Below, piece by piece: positions 1,196 through 12,816 of a DNA stretch of 64,000 nucleotides. A model generated the notes under the pieces. That model searched no databases, had not been told where the DNA came from, and saw only the letters and a program-made list of their open reading frames with translations. This DNA is from an uncultured delta proteobacterium (GTDB taxonomy: Bacteria > Desulfobacterota > Deferrimicrobia > Deferrimicrobiales > Deferrimicrobiaceae): the NCBI GenBank assembly GCA_963760885.1, contig CAVXEY010000008.1, positions 255,022 to 319,021 on the forward strand, read 5' to 3'. The translations under genes were made by a program, and so were the position numbers. Each line of letters opens with the position of its first letter. Position 1 is the first letter of the stretch.

Positions 1196-2080
1196 ATGAG
1201 AAACCATCCGTTTTCCGTGCATTGGCTGAGGCATTCCGCGACGGTTTTCTCCATGGTGGCGGTTTTCGTCGCGTGGATCCCGACCGCCGATGCGGGTACG
1301 ACGCCCACGCTGGGCGGGGGAGGGTCGGTGGCGACCGGTTCGGCGGGCGGGGCCGAATCTCAAGGCGCGAGCAGTCAGCTGGAAAAGTGCGACGAATCGC
1401 TGGGCACCATGGCGGTGGTGGAAGACCAGAACTCCGCCTGGTATCACCAGCTCTCCCAATACAAGCTGGGTTCGACGGTGCCGGTGTTGCGGATCATGAT
1501 CCAGCAATCGAACTGCTTTGTCGTTGTGGAACGCGGACGCGCCATGAACAACATGATGCAGGAGCGTGCGCTCAGTCAGTCCGGAGAGATGCGTCAAGGG
1601 AGCAACCTCGGGAAAGGTCAGATGGTCGCGGCGGACTACACCATGAGCCCGAATATCACCTTCAGCCAGAAAGGGACCTCCGGCATGGGAGGAGCATTGG
1701 GAGGATTGTTCGGCAGCGCCGGGAGAGTAATCGGCATGGTGGCGGGCGGCATCAAGGCGAACGAATCGTCGACGACGCTCCTGCTGATCGACAACCGTTC
1801 GGGGGTTCAATTGGCGGCGGCGGAAGGCAGTGCGAAGAACTTCGATTTCTCCCTCTTTGGTGGCGGTGCCGGCGGAGGCATGTTTGGTGGCGCCGGAGGG
1901 TACTCCGATACGCCGGAGGGGAAGGTATTGATCGCCGCATTCATGGATTCCTATAACAAATTGGTCAGAGCTACCCGTAATTACAAGGCGCAGACCGTAA
2001 AAGGAGGCCTGGGGACCGGCGGCAGGCTGGGGGTTCAAGGCGGGTCTACTCCGGCCTCGAAGGAGATTCCGAACAAGTAA
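1196..2080 (+). CDS. CsgG-family (curli secretion channel-like) periplasmic/outer-membrane protein, lone copy
   Basis: Block order resembles E. coli CsgG: MAVVEDQN (cf. VSVYNIQDETG), FVVVERGRAMNNMMQERAL (cf. FIPLERQGLQNLLNERK), Gly-rich loops. Start is at ATG 1196 after a signal-like MVAVFVAWIPTADA, with RBS GGAGGGG at 1183-1190. Confidence 0.6.
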   Translation: MRNHPFSVHWLRHSATVFSMVAVFVAWIPTADAGTTPTLGGGGSVATGSAGGAESQGASSQLEKCDESLGTMAVVEDQNSAWYHQLSQYKLGSTVPVLRIMIQQSNCFVVVERGRAMNNMMQERALSQSGEMRQGSNLGKGQMVAADYTMSPNITFSQKGTSGMGGALGGLFGSAGRVIGMVAGGIKANESSTTLLLIDNRSGVQLAAAEGSAKNFDFSLFGGGAGGGMFGGAGGYSDTPEGKVLIAAFMDSYNKLVRATRNYKAQTVKGGLGTGGRLGVQGGSTPASKEIPNK

Positions 2081-2102
2081 CGGAGAACGGATGGGATGAG
2101 GA

Positions 2103-2122
2103 TGGAAGGAGGCCGGCCTCCT
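2103..2122. terminator. Palindromic GC hairpin (GGAGGCCGGCCTCC) between the convergent csgG-like and histidine-kinase genes
   Basis: Perfect 14-nt palindrome seen directly; bidirectional terminator candidate. Confidence 0.4.
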
Positions 2123-2127
2123 TATCC

Positions 2128-4878
2128 TTAGGCCGGACGGGGGGAGTCGAGGACGGAGCGGACGGCTTTCACCAGCATGTCGGCGCGGTACGGCTTCGAA
2201 AGGAACGCCGTTCCGGGAGCCGGCTCGACGGGCGGGCTGCCGCTGGAGAGGAGGACCCGCACTCCCGGGTCGATGTTCCGGATCGCGCGAAAGACCTCCA
2301 TCCCGGACCGTTGGGGCATCGTGAGGTCGAGCACCACAAGGTCGATCGCCTCCCGGTTCAACCGGAAAAGATCGATCGCCTGAATTCCGTCCTCGGCCAG
2401 GAACACCTTGTACCCGTGCATCTCCATCACCTGGCGGCCAAGGTCGCGGATCAGCTCCTCGTCGTCCGCGAACAGCACGGTCTCCATCCCGGCCCCGGAA
2501 GGCAGGGTATCCGGGATCTTCTCCCTTTCCTCCGGGAGGCCCGTCGCCTCGGGGAAGTAGGCGCAGAAGGTCGTCCCCTTTCCCGTGCGGCTCTCCAGGT
2601 TGATCCACCCGTTGTGCTGCTTGATGATGCCGTACACGGTGGACAGCCCCAGCCCCGTCCCCCTCCCCATCTTCTTCGTGGTGAAGAACGGCTCGAACAC
2701 CCGCCGCTGCGTCGCTTCGTCCATCCCGGCACCGTTGTCGCCGATGGAGAGCCGGATAAAGGAGCCTTTCCGGGCGTACGGGAAGATCCGGCAGTAGTCG
2801 TCGTCCACCTCCACGTTCTCCGCCCGGATGTAGATCCAGTACCCCGTCAGCGGCCGCCTCCCCGACCTCTCCTCGGCCTCGAGACTCTCGATGATCGCGT
2901 CCCGGGCGTTTACGCACAGGTTCATGAGGACCTGGTGGACCTGGTTGGGATCGACAAAGGCCGGGAGCAGGTCGTCGGCGATGGAGCAGGTCACCCCGAT
3001 CCGGCGGTCGATCGTCTGGGAAAAGAGGGCGGTCACCTCCCGGGCCACGTTTCCGAGGTCCACGGGGCGGCACTCCGCGGGGGCGCGCCGGGAGAAGTCG
3101 AGGAGCTGGCGCACGAGCTGTACCGCGCGTTCCGAGGCCTTGATCCCTTCGGCGATCGGGGCCGACGCCGGGGAGCCGGGCGGCACGAACCCGCGGGCGA
3201 GGTCGAGACTGCCGAGGATCCCCGTGAGGATATTGTTGAAGTCGTGCGCGATCCCCCCGGCCAGTGTCCCGACGGCTTCCATCTTCTGCATCTCGATCAG
3301 CTGCTTTTCGAGCAGGCGCCGTTCCGTGACGTCGATCCCGGTCACGATGACGGAGACGATCGCCCCGGCCCCGTCGTGCAGGGGGGCATGGTTCCATGCG
3401 ATCATCCGCGGCGCATCGTGGGCGGTGACGATCGCGGTTTCGAGAGGGGGCGGCGTGCGCCCCGCGGCGACCCCCCGGATGGCGTCGCGGTGGAGGTCGC
3501 GGGCCGGCTCCGCGATCAGCAGGTCCCACATCATCTTTCCCTGCGCATCCCGCGCGTCGATCCCGGTCAGTTCCTCGCACTGCCGGTTGAAGAGCAGGAT
3601 CTCCCCTGCCCGGCTCACCTGCAGGACGAGCGCCCCGGAGATGTCCAGCATCCGGTTCGAGAAATCGCGCTCCTTCCGGAGTTCCCGGAGGACCCGCACC
3701 CTGTCGGTCACATCGCGAAGGACGATCATCCCGAGGGGGCCGCATCGCTTCGGGACGAACGAGTCGTTCCGGTCTTCCCGGGGCGCCCAGGTGAGACGGA
3801 TCTCCCCCGGGAAGGTCGATCCGTCCATGCGGAGGAGAGAGGTCTCCCACTCGCTCCGGAGCTCTCCCATGCCGGGCCTCAGCAATTCCTCCCGCAGATC
3901 GGCAACATCGTCGGGGTCCGCCAGGATCGAAACCGGGTCGGCGTCGAACAGCAGCCCCGGGGAAGCGTACCCGAGCATCTCGGCGGCCGCCGGATTGGCG
4001 CGCACCACCTTCCCCTCGCGCACCAGGATGACCCCGTCCCGCTGGTTCCTGAGCAGTTCGTCGTAGGAAGCCTTCGCGTTGACGAAGATCTCGTGGCGCC
4101 TGGCCCCCTGGATCGCGCTTCCCACCCGGCGGGCCATCGCGGCGAGCGCCTCCGATTCGACGGCGTCGAAGGCCGCGGCCGTGTCGGCGTGCACGACGAA
4201 AACCTTGTGCTGGAAACCGTGCTGCTCGATCCGGGCGGCGGCGCAGCGCTGGAGCCCGTGGCGCCGGCTCCCGTCCCGCCACTCCGCGGGGAGTCCGTCG
4301 CCGATGTCGCTCGCGGTGATCGTCCCGCCGTTCCGCAATGCGCTTCCGGGCGGCGTTCGCCCCAAGGGCGTGTCGTCCCAGCGGAGAGGGATTTCCCGGA
4401 GAAACTCCCCGGCGTCCCCCGCGCTGCACTCCACGCGGATCGATCCGTCGGCCTCGGCGGTTCCCACCCACACGAGGCGGTACCCGCGGGAGCGGGAGAG
4501 GATGCCGCACACCAGGGAGAGGACCATCCCCTCCTCCAGGACGCCCACAAGGGACCGCTCCACCTCGGCGATCAGCTCGAACCGCGCCTCGAGTCGATCC
4601 CTGTAGCGGAACCATTGGCCGGTGAGGAGGAAGCCCGCGGCGAGGAGCAGGGAGATGAAGAATTCGGCGATCACGACCGGCTGGTCGGCAAGCGGCGTAG
4701 CCGTGGACCAGGAAGAGGAGAAGACCACCCAGACCGAAAGAAGACCCTTCAGGAAGAGGGCAAGGGAGACGAAGGACCAGACACGGCCGAGCCGGCCGGT
4801 CGACAGAAACACGACCGACTGCCACGCGGCGACGAACTGAAAGAATGCCGAGACGCACTGGACCGCAGGAAGCACCAT
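2128..4878 (-). CDS. Membrane-anchored PAS/PAS hybrid sensor histidine kinase (HisKA + HATPase_c + C-terminal receiver)
   Basis: Four N-terminal TM segments, PAS repeats, the H-box AHDFNNILTGILG, the N/G boxes LMNLCVNARDA and GTGLGLS, and a receiver VLFADDEELIRD...VVLDLTMP. Start chosen at the internal ATG (MVLPAV...) with a GGGGAG RBS. Confidence 0.85.
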   Translation of the reverse strand: MVLPAVQCVSAFFQFVAAWQSVVFLSTGRLGRVWSFVSLALFLKGLLSVWVVFSSSWSTATPLADQPVVIAEFFISLLLAAGFLLTGQWFRYRDRLEARFELIAEVERSLVGVLEEGMVLSLVCGILSRSRGYRLVWVGTAEADGSIRVECSAGDAGEFLREIPLRWDDTPLGRTPPGSALRNGGTITASDIGDGLPAEWRDGSRRHGLQRCAAARIEQHGFQHKVFVVHADTAAAFDAVESEALAAMARRVGSAIQGARRHEIFVNAKASYDELLRNQRDGVILVREGKVVRANPAAAEMLGYASPGLLFDADPVSILADPDDVADLREELLRPGMGELRSEWETSLLRMDGSTFPGEIRLTWAPREDRNDSFVPKRCGPLGMIVLRDVTDRVRVLRELRKERDFSNRMLDISGALVLQVSRAGEILLFNRQCEELTGIDARDAQGKMMWDLLIAEPARDLHRDAIRGVAAGRTPPPLETAIVTAHDAPRMIAWNHAPLHDGAGAIVSVIVTGIDVTERRLLEKQLIEMQKMEAVGTLAGGIAHDFNNILTGILGSLDLARGFVPPGSPASAPIAEGIKASERAVQLVRQLLDFSRRAPAECRPVDLGNVAREVTALFSQTIDRRIGVTCSIADDLLPAFVDPNQVHQVLMNLCVNARDAIIESLEAEERSGRRPLTGYWIYIRAENVEVDDDYCRIFPYARKGSFIRLSIGDNGAGMDEATQRRVFEPFFTTKKMGRGTGLGLSTVYGIIKQHNGWINLESRTGKGTTFCAYFPEATGLPEEREKIPDTLPSGAGMETVLFADDEELIRDLGRQVMEMHGYKVFLAEDGIQAIDLFRLNREAIDLVVLDLTMPQRSGMEVFRAIRNIDPGVRVLLSSGSPPVEPAPGTAFLSKPYRADMLVKAVRSVLDSPRPA

Positions 4879-5069
4879 CCGGGTATTCCACTCCCCCGTT
4901 TTCTCTCGTGAACGACTCCCATGATCCCTATCGGCGGGATACACCCGGATCTTCAAGAGATTCTTTCGACCCGACGGCATTCTACCAGATGGAAGGGCCG
5001 CCCGCTCTTATGGCGAATGATTGCGGAAAATTATAGAATGCCGGCATCATCGTCCAACAGGAGACGCGG

Positions 5070-6506: not shown

Positions 6507-7493
6507 ATGCGCTTCGACAGCCTCTACGAAAAACCCGTGCTCTTCGCCCTCGCGGCGGTGGTCGTCATCTCGGTGGGGACGCTGGTGACGACCTTCATCC
6601 CCCTCTTCCTCCCGTCGACCCAGCCGGTGAGCCCGCTGTTCAAGCCATACACGGCGGTCGAGACGGAAGGCAGGGACATCTACATCCGGGAAGGGTGCAA
6701 CAACTGCCACACCCAGACGGTACGGCCGCTGCGCTCCGAGGTCGCCCGGTACGGCGACTACTCCCGGGCCGAGGAGTCCGCCTGGGACCGCCCCTTCCTG
6801 TGGGGTTCGCGGCGAACGGGGCCCGACCTCGCCCGGGTGGGGGGAAAGTACCCGGACGCGTGGCATTACCGCCACATGGCGAACCCGCAGGCGATGTTCG
6901 ATAAATCGAACATGCCGGCGTATCCATGGCTCGCGAAAGCGAAGCTCGACACCTCCCTGACGGCCCGGAAGGTGAAAACCCTCGGTTTCGGCTACGACGA
7001 GGCGGAGGTCGCCCGGCAACTGGCCGGCTTCCGGCGGACGGTCACGGCGGCGACCTATCCGTCCGCGCAGGTCCGCTCCCAGGTGACGCCGGCCGAGCTT
7101 CGTGGGGAGACCACCGAACTCGACGCCCTGGTGGCGTATCTCCAGAAACTGGGGCGGGACATGAAAGCGTCGCAGAAACCGGCCGCGGGGGCTGTCTCCG
7201 CCGAGGCGGCCGAATTGAAGAACCCGTACGCGGGAAACCGCGCGGCGGAGGAGGCAGGCGAGAAGATCTTCAAGGAGAATTGCCGTCCCTGCCACGGCGA
7301 AAACGGGGTCGGCGGATTCGGCCCGAAGCTGGCGACGACCACCCACAAGTTCGGTGGTTCGGACGCGGACCTGTTCACATCCATCGCGGGGGGCCGCCCG
7401 GGAGGTATGCCCACGTTCCTTTCGCAGCTGGGGAAAGACAGGATCTGGAAGGCGGTCACCTACATCCGGCACCTTGAAAAGAGCGGCCAATGA
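6507..7493 (+). CDS. ccoO: cbb3 oxidase subunit II (CcoO) with a fused C-terminal monoheme cytochrome c domain
   Basis: N-terminal TM plus CNNCH heme site and the FixO-like block (WDRPFLWGSRRTGPDLARVGGKY). A second CXXCH (CRPCHGENG) and GGMP motif sit in the ~100-aa C-terminal extension. Confidence 0.9.
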   Translation: MRFDSLYEKPVLFALAAVVVISVGTLVTTFIPLFLPSTQPVSPLFKPYTAVETEGRDIYIREGCNNCHTQTVRPLRSEVARYGDYSRAEESAWDRPFLWGSRRTGPDLARVGGKYPDAWHYRHMANPQAMFDKSNMPAYPWLAKAKLDTSLTARKVKTLGFGYDEAEVARQLAGFRRTVTAATYPSAQVRSQVTPAELRGETTELDALVAYLQKLGRDMKASQKPAAGAVSAEAAELKNPYAGNRAAEEAGEKIFKENCRPCHGENGVGGFGPKLATTTHKFGGSDADLFTSIAGGRPGGMPTFLSQLGKDRIWKAVTYIRHLEKSGQ

Positions 7494-7669
7494 CACCGCG
7501 CGCGCTGGCGTATCTTTTCTTCACGCTGCTCCTCGCCGTGGTCTTCGCAGGGATCGTCGCGTATTATTTCAACCGGAAGCGGCACGACCGCGTGGAAGCC
7601 CCGAAGTACCGGATGCTGGACGACGACGATCCGCTGCCCGGCTCCACGGGCGGCCGCCGGGAGGTATGA
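7490..7669 (+). CDS. ccoQ: CcoQ-like small single-TM subunit (59 aa), absent from the ORF track
   Basis: ATG overlaps the ccoO stop (ATGA). Translation is MTPRALAYLFFTLLLAVVFAGIVAYYFNRKRHDRVEAPKYRMLDDDDPLPGSTGGRREV. It occupies the canonical ccoNOQP position, and its tail motif RMLDDD is shared with CcoS downstream. Confidence 0.5.
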   Translation: MTPRALAYLFFTLLLAVVFAGIVAYYFNRKRHDRVEAPKYRMLDDDDPLPGSTGGRREV

Positions 7670-7673
7670 TCCG

Positions 7674-8156
7674 ATGGACGAGCCGATCGGGAAGCTGGAG
7701 GCGCACAACAAGGTTCCCCGCGGTTTCCTCATCCTGCTGTTCGGGTTGATCGCAATCGGCGTCTACTACATCGCCGCGTACACGCCGGGGATCAGCGGCT
7801 GGTCGCAATACAAGACGTTATCGAAGGAGATGGAGGCGGACAAGCTGAAAGCCGCCGCCGACGCCGCGAAGATGACCGAGAACCCCTACGAGCGGGATGA
7901 AAAGGCCGTGGCGGAAGGGCAGGTCCTCTACGCCGCGAAATGCGCCGAGTGCCACGGGAAAGACCTGAAGGGAGCGGACGGCCCGTCCCTGGTCGGCCAC
8001 CTGAAGTTCGGCGAACAGGATCCCGGGAAATACGAGTCGATCGCGAAGGGGCGCCCGGGCGGGATGCCCGCGTTCGAGACGGAACTGGGACGGGACCGGA
8101 TCTGGAAGGTGCTGGCCTACGTCGACTCGGTACGGGAATACGGGAGGAAACCGTAA
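7674..8156 (+). CDS. ccoP: Monoheme membrane-anchored cytochrome c, CcoP-like (cbb3 subunit III with one heme domain)
   Basis: N-terminal TM (GFLILLFGLIAIGVYYIAAY), one CAECH heme site, and a GRPGGMPAF methionine ligand region. Confidence 0.75.
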   Translation: MDEPIGKLEAHNKVPRGFLILLFGLIAIGVYYIAAYTPGISGWSQYKTLSKEMEADKLKAAADAAKMTENPYERDEKAVAEGQVLYAAKCAECHGKDLKGADGPSLVGHLKFGEQDPGKYESIAKGRPGGMPAFETELGRDRIWKVLAYVDSVREYGRKP

Positions 8157-8185: not shown

Positions 8186-9289
8186 ATGTGGAAAAATCGC
8201 CGACGGACCGTCGCCCTCCTCGGGGGAGCGGCGACCCTTCTCCTCCCTTTCCTCCGGATCCGCGGACGCAGCGCGGCGCGCTTCGACCTTCCGACCCTCT
8301 CGCTCCACTTCTTCGGGGCGGTCGTTCCGATCGACGAGTTCTACCTGGTCCTGCTGGGCGCGCTCTTCCTCGTGGCGCTCATCCTCTGGGTGACGGTCGT
8401 CTTCGGCAGATTGTGGTGCGGCTGGCTCTGCCCGCAGACGGTGATCCGGGAGATCGGCGAGTGGATCGCCTCCGCGCTCCCGGCCCGATTCCGCCGCGTC
8501 GGAAAGACGCTGGCGCTCCTCCCCTTCTCCGCTCTGGTGTCCCTCTCCCTCCTGTGGTACTTCGTCCCTCCCGCCGAGGCGACCCGCGACCTCTTCCGGT
8601 CCCCGATCCTGCTCGGCTTCTTCCTGTCCCAGTGGGGAGTGATCTACATCATGGTGGCCGTCATCGGGCCCCGCTTCTGCAAGACGGCGTGCCCGTACGC
8701 GATGCTCCAGAATGTCCTCTCCGACCGGGAGACGCTCGCGATCGCGTACGACCCGGCGCGGCCCGTATGCCTCCGGTGCGACGGCTGCATCCGGGTCTGC
8801 CCGGTGGGGATCGACGTCCGGAAGGGAGCGCAGCGGGAGTGCATCGCCTGCGCGTCGTGCATCGACGCCTGCCGGGAGGCGACGTCGGGGCGGGACATCG
8901 AGCCCTTCATCGCCTACCGGGGAACGGTCCTGCGCGGGAAAGCGTACCTCTTCGCGGGGGGGTGCCTCGCGGCGGCGCTCGTCCTCTTCGCGGCGGCCTG
9001 GAGCCGTCCCGACATCCGGTTCGCCGTGCAGTGGGAAGGGAAGGCCGGTGCGCGCCGCGGAAACGTCTACCGGTACTCCGTGCGGAACGATTCGGACCGG
9101 CCGGTCGCGCTCGCGCTTTCCGTCGATCGGCCTGCGCGCCTCCTCGACGATCCGGAGGTCGCGGTGCCCTCCCGGGGCCGCGTAACCGGGACGGTGACGG
9201 TGCAGGGAGAAAGCGGAACGACGGGGGAGATCCGGATCACGGCCACAGGGCCGGGCTTCCGGCTCGTCCGGAAGGCGGCGTTTCCGTGA
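8186..9289 (+). CDS. ccoG: CcoG/FixG polyferredoxin-like cbb3 assembly protein
   Basis: Carries WCGWLCPQ and two 4Fe-4S cysteine clusters (CLRCDGCIRVCP, CIACASCIDAC). Start chosen at the internal ATG MWKNRRR. Confidence 0.9.
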   Translation: MWKNRRRTVALLGGAATLLLPFLRIRGRSAARFDLPTLSLHFFGAVVPIDEFYLVLLGALFLVALILWVTVVFGRLWCGWLCPQTVIREIGEWIASALPARFRRVGKTLALLPFSALVSLSLLWYFVPPAEATRDLFRSPILLGFFLSQWGVIYIMVAVIGPRFCKTACPYAMLQNVLSDRETLAIAYDPARPVCLRCDGCIRVCPVGIDVRKGAQRECIACASCIDACREATSGRDIEPFIAYRGTVLRGKAYLFAGGCLAAALVLFAAAWSRPDIRFAVQWEGKAGARRGNVYRYSVRNDSDRPVALALSVDRPARLLDDPEVAVPSRGRVTGTVTVQGESGTTGEIRITATGPGFRLVRKAAFP

Positions 9290-9717
9290 AGCGCCTGATC
9301 GGAGGGCTGTTCGCCGCCTTCGCGCTCCTGATCGTCGCTACGGTCTACATCTCGTATCGCTCCTGGGACGGCCTCGTCGATCGCGGCGTTTCCGAAACGG
9401 CGGGCGGCCTGCGCGGCGCCATCGGCGGACAGGAGGTCCTCCTCTCGATCACCCCATGGCCACCGATCGCGATGCGGGAGGTCGATTTCACCGTGTCCCT
9501 TCCCGGGTATGCGGGGAAAGCCTCCCCCTACGTCGACCTGTCGATGGCGGGGATGGAGATGGGACGGAACCGCGTGGATCTCTCCCGCGGGGACGACGGG
9601 CGATACCACGGCACGGGGGTGTTCGTCCGGTGCCCGAGCGGCAGGCGCGACTGGGAAGCGACGGTGACGGCGCCGGGCGCCGGGAAGGCGGTATTCCGTT
9701 TTGCCGTGGCCGACTGA
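9286..9717 (+). CDS. FixH/CcoH-like small membrane-anchored protein
   Basis: GTG start overlaps the ccoG stop (GTGA). N-terminal TM (LIGGLFAAFALLIVATVYI) is followed by a ~110-aa soluble domain. Position between ccoG and ccoI. Confidence 0.55.
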   Translation: MKRLIGGLFAAFALLIVATVYISYRSWDGLVDRGVSETAGGLRGAIGGQEVLLSITPWPPIAMREVDFTVSLPGYAGKASPYVDLSMAGMEMGRNRVDLSRGDDGRYHGTGVFVRCPSGRRDWEATVTAPGAGKAVFRFAVAD

Positions 9718-10396
9718 CTCCCTCCCGTGGCTACTTTTCGTCACCGGGCTGGTGGGCGGGGCAGGCCATTGCGTCGGGATGTGCGGCCCGCTGGTCGCCG
9801 GGTACGCCATCACGCTGCGGAACCGCGCGGCGACCCTTCCGCACCTCTTCTTCCACATGGGCCGGGTGACCACGTACGGCATCGCGGGGGGAATCGTCGG
9901 GGCGTCGGGCTCCTTCGTCCGCGTCGCGGCGTGGGTCGCCCCCTTCCAGTCGTTCCTCCTCGCCGCGACCGGCGTGCTGATCGCCCTGATGGGGCTTTCG
10001 GTCGGCGGCTGGCTGCCGTGGGCGCGACGGATCGAGGGGAGCGGCCCTTTCCAGGGCGTCCTCGCCGGGGTCGCGCGGCGCGCGGCCGAGGCGGGCGGCC
10101 CGGGCGCCGCCTTCCCCCTCGGTATGGCGACGGGGTTGCTCCCGTGCGGGTTGGTCTACACCGCGCTCCTCTCGGCGGCGCGCTCCGGGATGGAAGGGGG
10201 GTCGCCGGCCGACGGCTTCGTCCGGGGGTTCCTCGCGATGGCCGCCTTCGGGGCGGGAACGTTCCCCGCCCTGTTCCTGTTCGGCAAAGTGGTCGCGGCG
10301 GCGGGGCCGCGCCTGCGCGGGGCGCTGGCGAAGGTCGCGGCCGCCCTCCTCGTCGCCGCCGGGGTGATGTTCGCCGCGCGCGCCCTCCTCCGTTGA
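9701..10396 (+). CDS. DsbD_2/TauE-like polytopic membrane protein with HCxxMCGP metal-binding motif
   Basis: GGAGHCVGMCGPLVAGY motif near the N-terminus, 6-7 TM segments, and a Gly-rich segment. Embedded between the fixH-like gene and ccoI. Confidence 0.5.
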   Translation: MPWPTDSLPWLLFVTGLVGGAGHCVGMCGPLVAGYAITLRNRAATLPHLFFHMGRVTTYGIAGGIVGASGSFVRVAAWVAPFQSFLLAATGVLIALMGLSVGGWLPWARRIEGSGPFQGVLAGVARRAAEAGGPGAAFPLGMATGLLPCGLVYTALLSAARSGMEGGSPADGFVRGFLAMAAFGAGTFPALFLFGKVVAAAGPRLRGALAKVAAALLVAAGVMFAARALLR

Positions 10397-10410: not shown

Positions 10411-12816
10411 ATGGCGGTCTGCGCGCACTGCCTCCTGGAGGTGCCGGAGGAGTCCGCGACCCGGGAGACGATCGACGGGAGGGAGACGATCTTCTGCTGC
10501 CCCGGGTGCCGGGCGATCCACGGCCTCCTGCGGTCCGAAGGGTTGACCGGCTTCTACGCCCGGCGTCACGGGTGGACGCCCGGCCCTCCGGAGAGCGCCC
10601 GGGTTCCGATCGAAGCGTTCGACGGGGCCGTCCGCGCCTCGGGCCGGCAGGCCGAGGCGGATCTCGTCCTCTCCGGGATCCGGTGCGCCTCCTGCGTCTG
10701 GCTCATCGAGCGGTATCTCGGGGGGCGGCCCGGCATTCTCTCGACGCGCGTCAATTTCGCCACCGGCAGGGCGCGAATCTCCTGGAATCCGTCGGAAACC
10801 GGGATCGGAGACGTCGTCCTGGCGATCCGCGCCCTCGGGTACACGCCGTATCCCCCCGAATCGCTCCCCGTCGGGGACGCCCTTCGCCGGGAAACGTCGG
10901 ACCTGCTGCTGCGCTTCGGGACCGCGGCGTTCCTTTCGATGCAGGTGATGCTCTTCACCGCGGGGCTCTACGCAGGGTACTTCCAGGGGATCGACGCGCG
11001 GTACGGGCAGCTTTTCCGCTGGCTCTGTTTCCTCCTCGCCACCCCGGTCGTCTTCTACTCCGGAGCGCCCTTCTTCCGTGGCGCCCTCCGCGGGGCGCGC
11101 CACGGGGCGTTCGGGATGGATGCCCTCGTCTTCCTCGGCGCCTTCTCCGCGTACGCCTACAGCACCGTCTCGCTGTTCCTCGGGGGGGAGGTGTATTTCG
11201 ACACGGCGACGATGATCCTGACCCTGATCCTCCTCGGCCGGTACATCGAGGCCGGGGCGCGGTCCCGCGCGGCCGATGGCATCTCCAGGCTCGTGCGGCT
11301 CGCGCCCGTGATGGCCCGGAAGGCGGCATCGGGCGGCGGAGCGGTCGACGTCCCCGTCGCCTCCCTCGCCCCCGGGGATCTCGTGGAGATCGTCCCCGGG
11401 GAACGGATGCCGGTGGACGGGAACGTGGTCGAAGGGAATTCGGAGGCGGACGAATCGATGTTGACCGGGGAGTCGGCCCCCGTGTCCAAACTCGCGGGGG
11501 ACCCGGTCGTCGCCGGGTCGCTGAACGGGACCGGGCGGCTCCTGGTCCGGGTTGTCCGGACCGGAGGGGAGACCGTCCTGTCCCGCGTCGTGCAGGCCGT
11601 GGAGGAGGCGCAGGCGCGAAAGGCCCCGATCCAGCGGACGGCCGATCGCGTGGTCCGCTTCTTCGTGCCGGCGATCCTCCTCATCGCCGCGGGGACGGTT
11701 CTCCTGGGACTTCACGGCGGTTCCCTCCCCCACGCCGCGCTGATGGCGGGGATCTCGGTGCTGGTGATCGCCTGCCCGTGCGCCCTCGGGCTTGCCACGC
11801 CGCTCGCGGTACTCGTGGGAACCACCTCCGCGCAGGCGCGCGGGATCCTGGTCCGCGGCGGGGACGTTCTCGAACAGGCGGCAAGGGTGCGGTGCGTCCT
11901 GTTCGACAAGACGGGGACGCTCACCCTCGGCCGCCCCCGGCTGACCGACGTCGAGGGGATCGGGATCGGACGCGAGGACGCCCTCCGGCTCGCCGCGTCC
12001 CTCGAGGCGTCCTCGGAGCACGCCATCGGACGCGCGATCGCGGATGCGCTTCCGGCCTCCCGGCGCCTTCCGGTCCGGGGGTTCCGGTCGCACCCGGGGG
12101 AAGGGATCGAGGGGGAGATCGACGGGGTGCGCTACCTGCTGGGCAGCCCGGAACTCCTCGCGCGATTCGGGGTCGCCGTGGTCGGGGAGACCTCCCGGGC
12201 GTACGCGGCGCTCTCGGCGAAACGAAGGACCGCGGTCCTCCTCTCCGACGGTTCGAGGCCCCTCGCGCTCCTCGCCACGGAGGACGCCCTCCGGCCGGAG
12301 GCGGCCGGGGCCGTATCCCTCCTGCGGGCCGCGGGGACCGCCGTCGCGATGGTCACGGGGGACGACCCGGGCGTCGCCGCGCGCGTGGCCGGGGAGGCCG
12401 GAATCGGGGAGATCCGCGCCCGCGTCACTCCGGAAGGGAAGCGCGAGGAGGTGCGCCGCGCGCGGGAGCGGTTCGGCCCCGTCCTCGTCGTCGGCGACGG
12501 CGTGAACGACGCCCCCGCCCTCGCGGAGGCGGACGTCGGGATCGCGATGGGACGCGGGACGGGGCTGGCGATCCACAGCGCCGGCGCGACGCTGATGACG
12601 GAGGACCTGCTGCGGATCCCCGCCTTCCTCTCGCTGTCCCGCGCCACGATCCGGGTGATCCGGCAGAACCTGTTCTGGGCATTCTCCTACAACCTGGTGG
12701 CGATACCGCTCGCGGTCGCGGGGAAGCTCCACCCGATCGTCGCCGCGGCCTTCATGGCCGGGAGCTCCCTCGTCGTCGTCGGAAACTCGCTAAGACTGAG
12801 GAAAGGGGGACGGTAG
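10411..12816 (+). CDS. ccoI: Copper-translocating P1B-type ATPase CcoI/FixI
   Basis: N-terminal CxxC metal-binding region, an HMA-like domain, and the phosphorylation site DKTGTLT. Also has the CPC transmembrane motif (IACPCALG) and the GDGVNDAPAL hinge. Confidence 0.9.
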   Translation: MAVCAHCLLEVPEESATRETIDGRETIFCCPGCRAIHGLLRSEGLTGFYARRHGWTPGPPESARVPIEAFDGAVRASGRQAEADLVLSGIRCASCVWLIERYLGGRPGILSTRVNFATGRARISWNPSETGIGDVVLAIRALGYTPYPPESLPVGDALRRETSDLLLRFGTAAFLSMQVMLFTAGLYAGYFQGIDARYGQLFRWLCFLLATPVVFYSGAPFFRGALRGARHGAFGMDALVFLGAFSAYAYSTVSLFLGGEVYFDTATMILTLILLGRYIEAGARSRAADGISRLVRLAPVMARKAASGGGAVDVPVASLAPGDLVEIVPGERMPVDGNVVEGNSEADESMLTGESAPVSKLAGDPVVAGSLNGTGRLLVRVVRTGGETVLSRVVQAVEEAQARKAPIQRTADRVVRFFVPAILLIAAGTVLLGLHGGSLPHAALMAGISVLVIACPCALGLATPLAVLVGTTSAQARGILVRGGDVLEQAARVRCVLFDKTGTLTLGRPRLTDVEGIGIGREDALRLAASLEASSEHAIGRAIADALPASRRLPVRGFRSHPGEGIEGEIDGVRYLLGSPELLARFGVAVVGETSRAYAALSAKRRTAVLLSDGSRPLALLATEDALRPEAAGAVSLLRAAGTAVAMVTGDDPGVAARVAGEAGIGEIRARVTPEGKREEVRRARERFGPVLVVGDGVNDAPALAEADVGIAMGRGTGLAIHSAGATLMTEDLLRIPAFLSLSRATIRVIRQNLFWAFSYNLVAIPLAVAGKLHPIVAAAFMAGSSLVVVGNSLRLRKGGR

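Follow-up and report, generated by a model that had tools for sequence, protein, structure and literature searches.

The window analysed here, a 64,000-nucleotide stretch of contig CAVXEY010000008.1 from an uncultured member of the Deferrimicrobiaceae, contains an operon for a high-affinity, cbb3-type (C-family) heme-copper oxidase in which CcoO carries an additional cytochrome c domain and CcoP is reduced to one. We consider it probable that the operon encodes a functional enzyme with three c-type hemes in its electron-entry module, two on CcoO and one on CcoP (written below as 2+1, CcoO first), and that the origin and electron path proposed below for the extra domain apply to it. The predicted heme binding rests on the motifs CNNCH, CRPCH and CAECH and on conserved methionines. 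The canonical CcoNOQP enzyme (P. stutzeri 3MK7, R. capsulatus 6XKW) shares CcoN, the CcoO core, CcoQ, ccoG/ccoI/ccoS and a total of three c-hemes with the window's, but carries one of them on CcoO and two on CcoP. The 2+1 layout is no one-off: it is the norm for its lineage, across two phyla of metagenome-assembled genomes (MAGs), and in the clade to which the window belongs, 41 of 43 complete loci have it.

An earlier note, made from the DNA itself, had picked out a 328-residue CcoO with the motifs CNNCH and CRPCH and a 160-residue CcoP-like protein with a single CAECH, three c-heme motifs split 2+1; these open reading frames (ORFs), motifs and counts all hold. In the fused CcoO, CNNCH lies at residues 64-68 and CRPCH at 259-263, and Pfam assigns FixO to residues 6-218 (E 9.5e-75, 251 bits) and Cytochrome_CBB3 to residues 247-320 (E 3e-15). 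The core passes the cutoffs of both TIGR00781 (222.4 bits, cutoff 200.65) and NF011055 (254.3 bits, cutoff 218), and it aligns with solved CcoO chains at 182-189 bits; encoded next to ccoN, it is the membrane-anchored, one-heme FixO protein that characterizes the C family. That the C-terminal domain aligns to CcoP-type cytochrome c, which the note had made a point on which its proposal would stand or fall, is borne out by Pfam, by TIGR00782 and by alignments to solved chains.

An alignment of 42 fused CcoOs shows no variation at several glycines, at the second CXXCH or at a GMP motif that includes the presumed axial Met301. Conservation is 78% in the core and 66% in the c domain and is lowest, at 46%, in the linker between them, and the spacing from one CXXCH to the other is 193-198 residues in most fused loci but 167-169 in five Nitrospirota loci. 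An invariant heme site behind a weakly conserved linker points to an extra domain that is under purifying selection on a variable tether. An AlphaFold2 single-chain model of the fused CcoO was poor (mean predicted local distance difference test score, pLDDT, 60; predicted template modelling score 0.46; pLDDT below 50 at residues 222-236); its input alignment held 50 sequences at 76-97% identity, too alike to be informative, and we make no structural claim from it.

The short CcoP has its single CAECH at residues 90-94 and matches Cytochrome_CBB3 over residues 78-150 (E 7.4e-14) and, weakly, FixP_N over residues 9-36 (20.3 bits, cutoff 24.9). Against TIGR00782, the model for canonical CcoP, it reaches 54.2 bits over model positions 21-191, far from the cutoff of 179.95, and it has one c domain where canonical CcoP combines FixP_N with two. 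It does fit the profile of the green-sulfur-type CcoP (about 140-160 residues, a single Cytochrome_CBB3 domain, encoded after ccoQ), its own weak FixP_N aside, and is 41-47% identical to the one-heme CcoP of Chlorobiaceae. The low FixP_N and TIGR00782 scores would also suit a separate membrane-anchored cytochrome c donor that is merely co-transcribed with the oxidase and not a subunit of it. We regard this as very unlikely: orthologues in related loci clear the FixP_N cutoff (27.8-40.8 bits), the gene holds the canonical position after ccoQ in the surveyed loci, and the protein aligns with solved CcoPs from the anchor region onward.

The catalytic subunit identifies the family. CcoN scores 533 bits against TIGR00780, slightly under the equivalog cutoff of 583, and aligns over its full length with P. 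stutzeri CcoN (3mk7_A, 482 bits). All of the residues aligned to H60, H207, Y251, H257, H258, H345 and H347 of that chain are conserved; these are reported (Buschmann et al. 2010) to be the heme and CuB histidines and the cross-linked helix-VII tyrosine. CcoN is thus recognizable as the catalytic subunit of a cbb3-type (C-family) heme-copper oxidase, and nothing at the locus suggests a pseudogene.

The earlier note had called for a survey of this architecture in related taxa, and such a survey finds it widely. In a search of a 5.8-billion-protein collection, the best 120 homologues of the fused CcoO were 76-97% identical to it and 318-329 residues long (one of 300), and all combined FixO with Cytochrome_CBB3. 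A scan of one genome per species yielded 80 loci, which we surveyed by tblastn and ORF extraction. Forty-one of them encode ccoN, a two-heme CcoO (295-331 aa), ccoQ and a one-heme CcoP (about 155-163 aa), and most of these continue with ccoG, a fixH-like gene and dsbD2. They come from Candidatus Deferrimicrobiaceae/Deferrimicrobium ("MBNT15"), from entries with the older label 'Deltaproteobacteria bacterium', from Nitrospirota and from Thermodesulfovibrio-like MAGs; closest to the window is the Deferrimicrobiaceae set, with 92-95% identity in CcoN. In the other 38 complete loci, CcoO is of the ordinary type, with 223 residues and one heme; ccoQ comes next, and then a one-heme CcoP of about 153 residues. 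Thirty-six of these are from Chlorobiaceae (including Chlorobaculum thiosulfatiphilum DSM 249), and the remaining two, L041 (CAYILU010000066.1) and L043 (JACRIV010000032.1), are MAGs.

A fusion of this kind could in principle be an artefact, a frameshift or misassembly that joins ccoO to a downstream cytochrome c gene. We found nothing in favour of this, and it is ruled out for practical purposes by the recurrence of the same two-heme ORF of 295-331 residues in 41 independent MAG contigs and in the best 120 protein clusters, from several sources; its probability is negligible.

Several loci depart from the common layout in detail. In L041 and L043, only a few bases separate the stop of the one-heme CcoO from ccoQ, and nothing is left of the extra domain; these two loci are natural 1+1 versions of nearly the same enzyme. 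Three Nitrospirota MAGs (L037, L039 and L040) carry a short-linker, 295-residue form of the fused CcoO; ccoQ follows ccoG in L037 and L039 rather than lying between ccoO and ccoP, and it was not detected in L040 in the locus survey. L037 (Nitrospirae MAG, JAMCQB010000001.1) also has, within 1874-4430, a second partial ccoO-c (residues 125-325) and a second ccoP after the first pair, which may be either a tandem duplication or an assembly repeat. In another Nitrospirae MAG (L034, 5135-5604), the one-heme ccoP is spread over two frames, from a frameshift or a sequencing error. Two Chlorobiaceae MAGs have a tandem ccoN pair upstream of a single ccoO (L051, 776-3958; L057, 915-3976). The MAGs L011, L024, L023 and L028 have near-identical operons, some under the labels Actinomycetota, Gemmatimonadota or Thermodesulfovibrio; the operon phylogeny suggests that at least the first two of these labels reflect mis-binning or generic naming.

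Where did the third heme domain come from? The earlier note read the arrangement as a domain swap: a canonical diheme CcoP would have been split and one of its heme domains attached to the C-terminal end of CcoO, with the three hemes only repartitioned. The total of three CXXCH motifs does equal the canonical count, and in whole-protein scans the CcoO C-terminus falls on TIGR00782 positions 191-281 (domain 2) and the short CcoP on 21-191 (anchor plus domain 1), as though the two together made up one canonical CcoP. The assignment of the short CcoP to domain 1 is, however, driven by its N-terminal anchor: scanned alone, its c domain falls on positions 198-281 and the CcoO C-terminal domain on 199-281, that is, on the same second heme domain. 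Both domains score higher against the C-terminal domain of NF011054, a model for fused CcoO proteins (see below), than against TIGR00782, with the CcoO domain matching NF011054 positions 206-291.

Pairwise comparisons give a similar picture. The window's two c domains match each other best (41% identity, 77 bits, E 4e-24), and neither exceeds about 35 bits against any domain of a solved canonical CcoP (top value 35.2). For the CcoO domain, the scores against canonical domains 1 and 2 are 31.7 and 35.2 bits with 8snh_G, 33.6 and 29.1 with 3mk7_C, and 13.5 and 27.2 with 6xkw_p; for the short CcoP, they are 31.4 and 27.3 with 8smr_G and 5.5 and 17.6 with 6xkx_p. Because the two scores are mostly only a few bits apart and their order flips with the reference, neither domain can be identified as the orthologue of a particular canonical one. 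Averaged over all loci, the identity of the CcoO C-terminal domains to one-heme CcoP domains is 44% where the CcoP comes from a fused-type locus and 42% where it comes from an unfused one, compared with 34% and 37% for domains 1 and 2 of Pseudomonas CcoP.

The CcoN tree (neighbour-joining) places Chlorobiaceae apart from a clade of Nitrospirota and Deferrimicrobiota (bootstrap 100/100), and L041 and L043 fall inside the Deferrimicrobiota-like part of that clade (100/100), L041 with the fused loci (75/100). The nearest outgroup, Chlorobiaceae, is thus 1+1 and not 1+2, and within the fused clade the extra domain has been lost at least once or else gained repeatedly. With two c domains that map to the same model region and whose similarity to each other far exceeds that to either canonical domain, and with a sister clade of 1+1 type, the swap proposed in the note does not hold up well, and we consider it quite unlikely.

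The simplest reading of these comparisons is that an enzyme of 1+1 type acquired a paralogous c domain and with it the third heme, which we find more likely than a repartition since the two c domains are closest to each other, cannot be assigned to canonical domains and have a 1+1 sister clade. The ancestral enzyme of the lineage would have resembled that of green sulfur bacteria, in which CcoO and CcoP have one heme each; CcoO would then have received a third heme domain at its C-terminal end, probably a duplicate of a CcoP-type c domain, and this domain would not have arisen by splitting a canonical diheme CcoP. Several points weigh against this scenario. In a neighbour-joining tree of the c domains (about 90 residues), the grouping of CcoO C-terminal domains with one-heme CcoP has a bootstrap of 0/100, so that pairwise similarity is what carries the duplication. 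Few canonical enzymes served for comparison (Pseudomonas, Rhodobacter and one more with a solved structure), and the root of the CcoN tree is assumed. A search of a plasmid collection with the short CcoP, meant to bring in rhizobial FixP, gave mostly small, unrelated c-type cytochromes, which were left out of the comparison. The two unfused loci inside the fused clade mean that loss does occur, and an ancestor of 2+1 type with loss in Chlorobiaceae could also be envisaged.

In the canonical enzyme, the distal CcoP heme (cp2) takes up electrons from the donor, and they go on through the proximal CcoP heme (cp1), the CcoO heme and heme b to b3/CuB (PMC7876108). Since FixP_N, the anchor that positions canonical CcoP, is retained in the short CcoP, the heme of the latter would most likely occupy the proximal, cp1-like position. 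The tethered CcoO domain would then provide the distal, donor-facing entry heme, analogous to cp2, with electrons flowing from the donor through the CcoO C-terminal heme, the CcoP heme, the CcoO core heme and heme b to heme b3/CuB. Three considerations count against this path. Where the extra domain sits and how the hemes are ordered is inferred, the single-chain AlphaFold2 model being poor; the function proposed for the operon is read from the genes of an uncultured lineage; and CcoO-c families that have no CcoP (described below) show that the CcoO heme can be supplied directly by a fused domain, which would make a parallel rather than serial arrangement possible.

The tethered domain might accordingly act as a built-in mobile carrier or parallel entry port that takes electrons from a partner complex and delivers them directly to the CcoO or the CcoP heme, with the fused cytochrome c of caa3 oxidases and the membrane-anchored cytochrome cy as comparators. 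Its Ala/Pro/Gly-rich linker is weakly conserved and variable in length, the CcoP-less fusions exist (L081-L083), and shuttling by tethered cytochrome cy has been documented for a cbb3 enzyme (PMC7876108). A linker of about 20 residues is nevertheless short for long-range shuttling, no gene for a partner complex adjoins the operon, and the idea comes from sequence features rather than from structure or kinetics; we judge it possible but rather unlikely. A more specific version is speculative, and we would put it forward only tentatively, as an unlikely one: the tethered heme domain might be a lineage-specific flexible carrier that wires the periplasmic multiheme or alternative complex III network of iron-cycling Deferrimicrobiota and Nitrospirota into a high-affinity oxidase with no soluble cytochrome, a cbb3 counterpart of caa3 that arose by duplication of the CcoP heme domain. 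Our preferred assignment for the tethered domain remains the distal, cp2-like entry heme.

Each component of the 2+1 enzyme is already catalogued. The closest match for the fused CcoO is NF011054/PRK14486 ("bifunctional cbb3 subunit II/cytochrome c"), which likewise has a FixO core and a C-terminal cytochrome c in one polypeptide. The fused CcoO scores 343.7 bits, with its residues 5-323 aligned to positions 4-290 of this 294-position model; as the equivalog cutoff is 447, the protein shares the architecture but lies outside the curated equivalog. Members that pass or nearly pass that cutoff (P0122, P0125 and P0127) come from operons without a separate ccoP, whereas the window keeps its one-heme CcoP. 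Among 1.84 billion cluster representatives, searched exhaustively, the 150 best CcoO-like ones include about 20 with two to four CXXCH motifs; all 10 of these that were scanned match NF011054, and P0122 alone is above the cutoff. In three CcoO-c fusion families (L081-L083), the operon has no separate ccoP, and in such families the extra CcoO domains evidently replace CcoP. Some CcoOs are longer still, with 362-509 residues and three or four CXXCH motifs (P0121, P0122, P0133, P0134, P0199, P0215 and L081), and look like complete CcoO-CcoP fusions; in L081, small ORFs and fixQ come after the three-heme CcoO, and a separate ccoP is absent.

For the other half of the arrangement, the closest relative is the cbb3 oxidase of green sulfur bacteria, which has a syntenic ccoN-O-Q-P-G cluster and a CcoN 66-70% identical to the window's. 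From these bacteria, a CcoP of half the usual length with a single Cytochrome_CBB3 domain is already published (PMC10158934), and the Chlorobiaceae CcoPs of our survey, at about 153 residues with FixP_N and one Cytochrome_CBB3, resemble the window's. Their CcoO is the ordinary 223-residue, one-heme form, for two c-hemes in total, whereas the window has three by way of the extra CcoO domain. More distant analogies are the caa3-type oxidases, in which subunit II is fused to cytochrome c, and the tri-heme CcoP of Neisseria (PMC2924362). Both have an extra covalent c domain at the electron-entry side, but the host differs: A-family subunit II in caa3, CcoP in Neisseria and CcoO in the window.

The paper naming Deferrimicrobium records only the presence of a cbb3 oxidase (PMC9386147). 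We found no description of a two-heme CcoO combined with a one-heme CcoP in the full-text literature within our coverage, outside which lay the survey of Ducluzeau et al. 2008 (Mol Biol Evol 25:1158); that survey is said to have found only ccoN and ccoO to be universal, with a varying third subunit. The earlier note had asked whether the arrangement might already be the described norm for this lineage, and the answer is divided: it is the norm and its parts are known separately, but the combination was not found described. The 2+1 combination and the relation between 1+1 and 2+1 forms across Chlorobiaceae, Nitrospirota and Deferrimicrobiota thus appear undescribed, but are unsurprising given the known plasticity of the cytochrome c subunits of cbb3 oxidases.

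The cluster is a complete ccoN-ccoO-ccoQ-ccoP-ccoG-(fixH-like)-dsbD2-ccoI-ccoS set (Table 1), in which the start of ccoQ overlaps the stop of ccoO (ATGA). Among the dedicated assembly genes, the ccoG-like gene, ccoI and ccoS are clear, though the ccoG-like product scores 147.8 bits against TIGR02745, under the model cutoff; the ccoH/fixH-like assignment is weak. By position, the FixH-like gene is kept in most related loci in the tblastn/ORF survey, and both it and the DsbD_2 gene, lying between ccoG and ccoI, are conserved in Deferrimicrobiota and Nitrospirota loci. The green sulfur cluster has a remote CcoH homologue at the position of the FixH-like gene, as well as a TauE-like gene (PMC10158934); within the 4-kb flanks of our Chlorobiaceae loci, tblastn gave no match to the DsbD_2 gene.

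Divergent from ccoN, on the minus strand (2128-4980), is a gene for a 950-residue hybrid sensor kinase with GAF, two PAS, HisKA, HATPase_c and receiver domains. The 90-bp gap upstream of ccoN (4981-5069) contains no match to an FNR/Anr-type box (TTGAT-N4-ATCAA, up to 2 mismatches), so regulation may run through this sensor kinase rather than FNR.

Table 1. Genes and protein segments of the cco cluster, in window coordinates
Feature	Position	Strand	Remarks
ccoN, catalytic subunit I of the cbb3 oxidase, 473 aa	5070-6491	+	directly upstream of ccoO; Pfam COX1 E 3.5e-102
ccoO, 328 aa, two c-heme motifs	6507-7493	+	FixO + Cytochrome_CBB3
ccoO core, aa 1-220: N-terminal transmembrane helix and one-heme FixO domain	6507-7166	+	CNNCH at 6696-6710
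ccoO linker, aa 221-240, Ala/Pro/Gly-rich, joins core to extra c domain	7167-7226	+	low conservation, variable length
ccoO extra C-terminal cytochrome c domain, aa 241-328	7227-7493	+	CRPCH at 7281-7295; presumed axial Met301 at 7407-7409
ccoQ/fixQ, 59 aa, between ccoO and ccoP	7490-7669	+	Pfam FixQ E 6.3e-10, 39.3 bits, cutoff 29
ccoP, one-heme, 160 aa: N-terminal transmembrane anchor and one cytochrome c domain	7674-8156	+	CAECH at 7941-7955
ccoG-like ferredoxin-type assembly protein	8186-9289	+	Fer4_18, Fer4_5 and FixG_C matches
Small membrane protein, probably FixH/CcoH-like	9286-9717	+	weak FixH match, E 0.049
DsbD_2-family membrane protein, within the cco cluster	9701-10396	+	Pfam DsbD_2 E 4.6e-41
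ccoI, copper-type P1B ATPase	10411-12816	+	E1-E2_ATPase, Hydrolase, ATPase-cat_bd and HMA matches
ccoS/fixS, 48 aa	12828-12974	+	Pfam FixS E 1.2e-18

The cbb3 oxidases allow respiration at nanomolar oxygen, and it is their c-type cytochrome subunits that vary and are partner-specific. Our general understanding of how these oxidases work is unchanged by the present findings, which do correct automated annotation that calls these proteins plain 'subunit II' and 'subunit III'. They also make available natural 1+1 and 2+1 forms of nearly the same enzyme for comparison. In a clade that includes Chlorobiaceae, Nitrospirota and Deferrimicrobiota, CcoP has one heme, and some members would then have gained a heme domain on CcoO; if so, evolution has more than one way of arriving at a three-heme entry wire.

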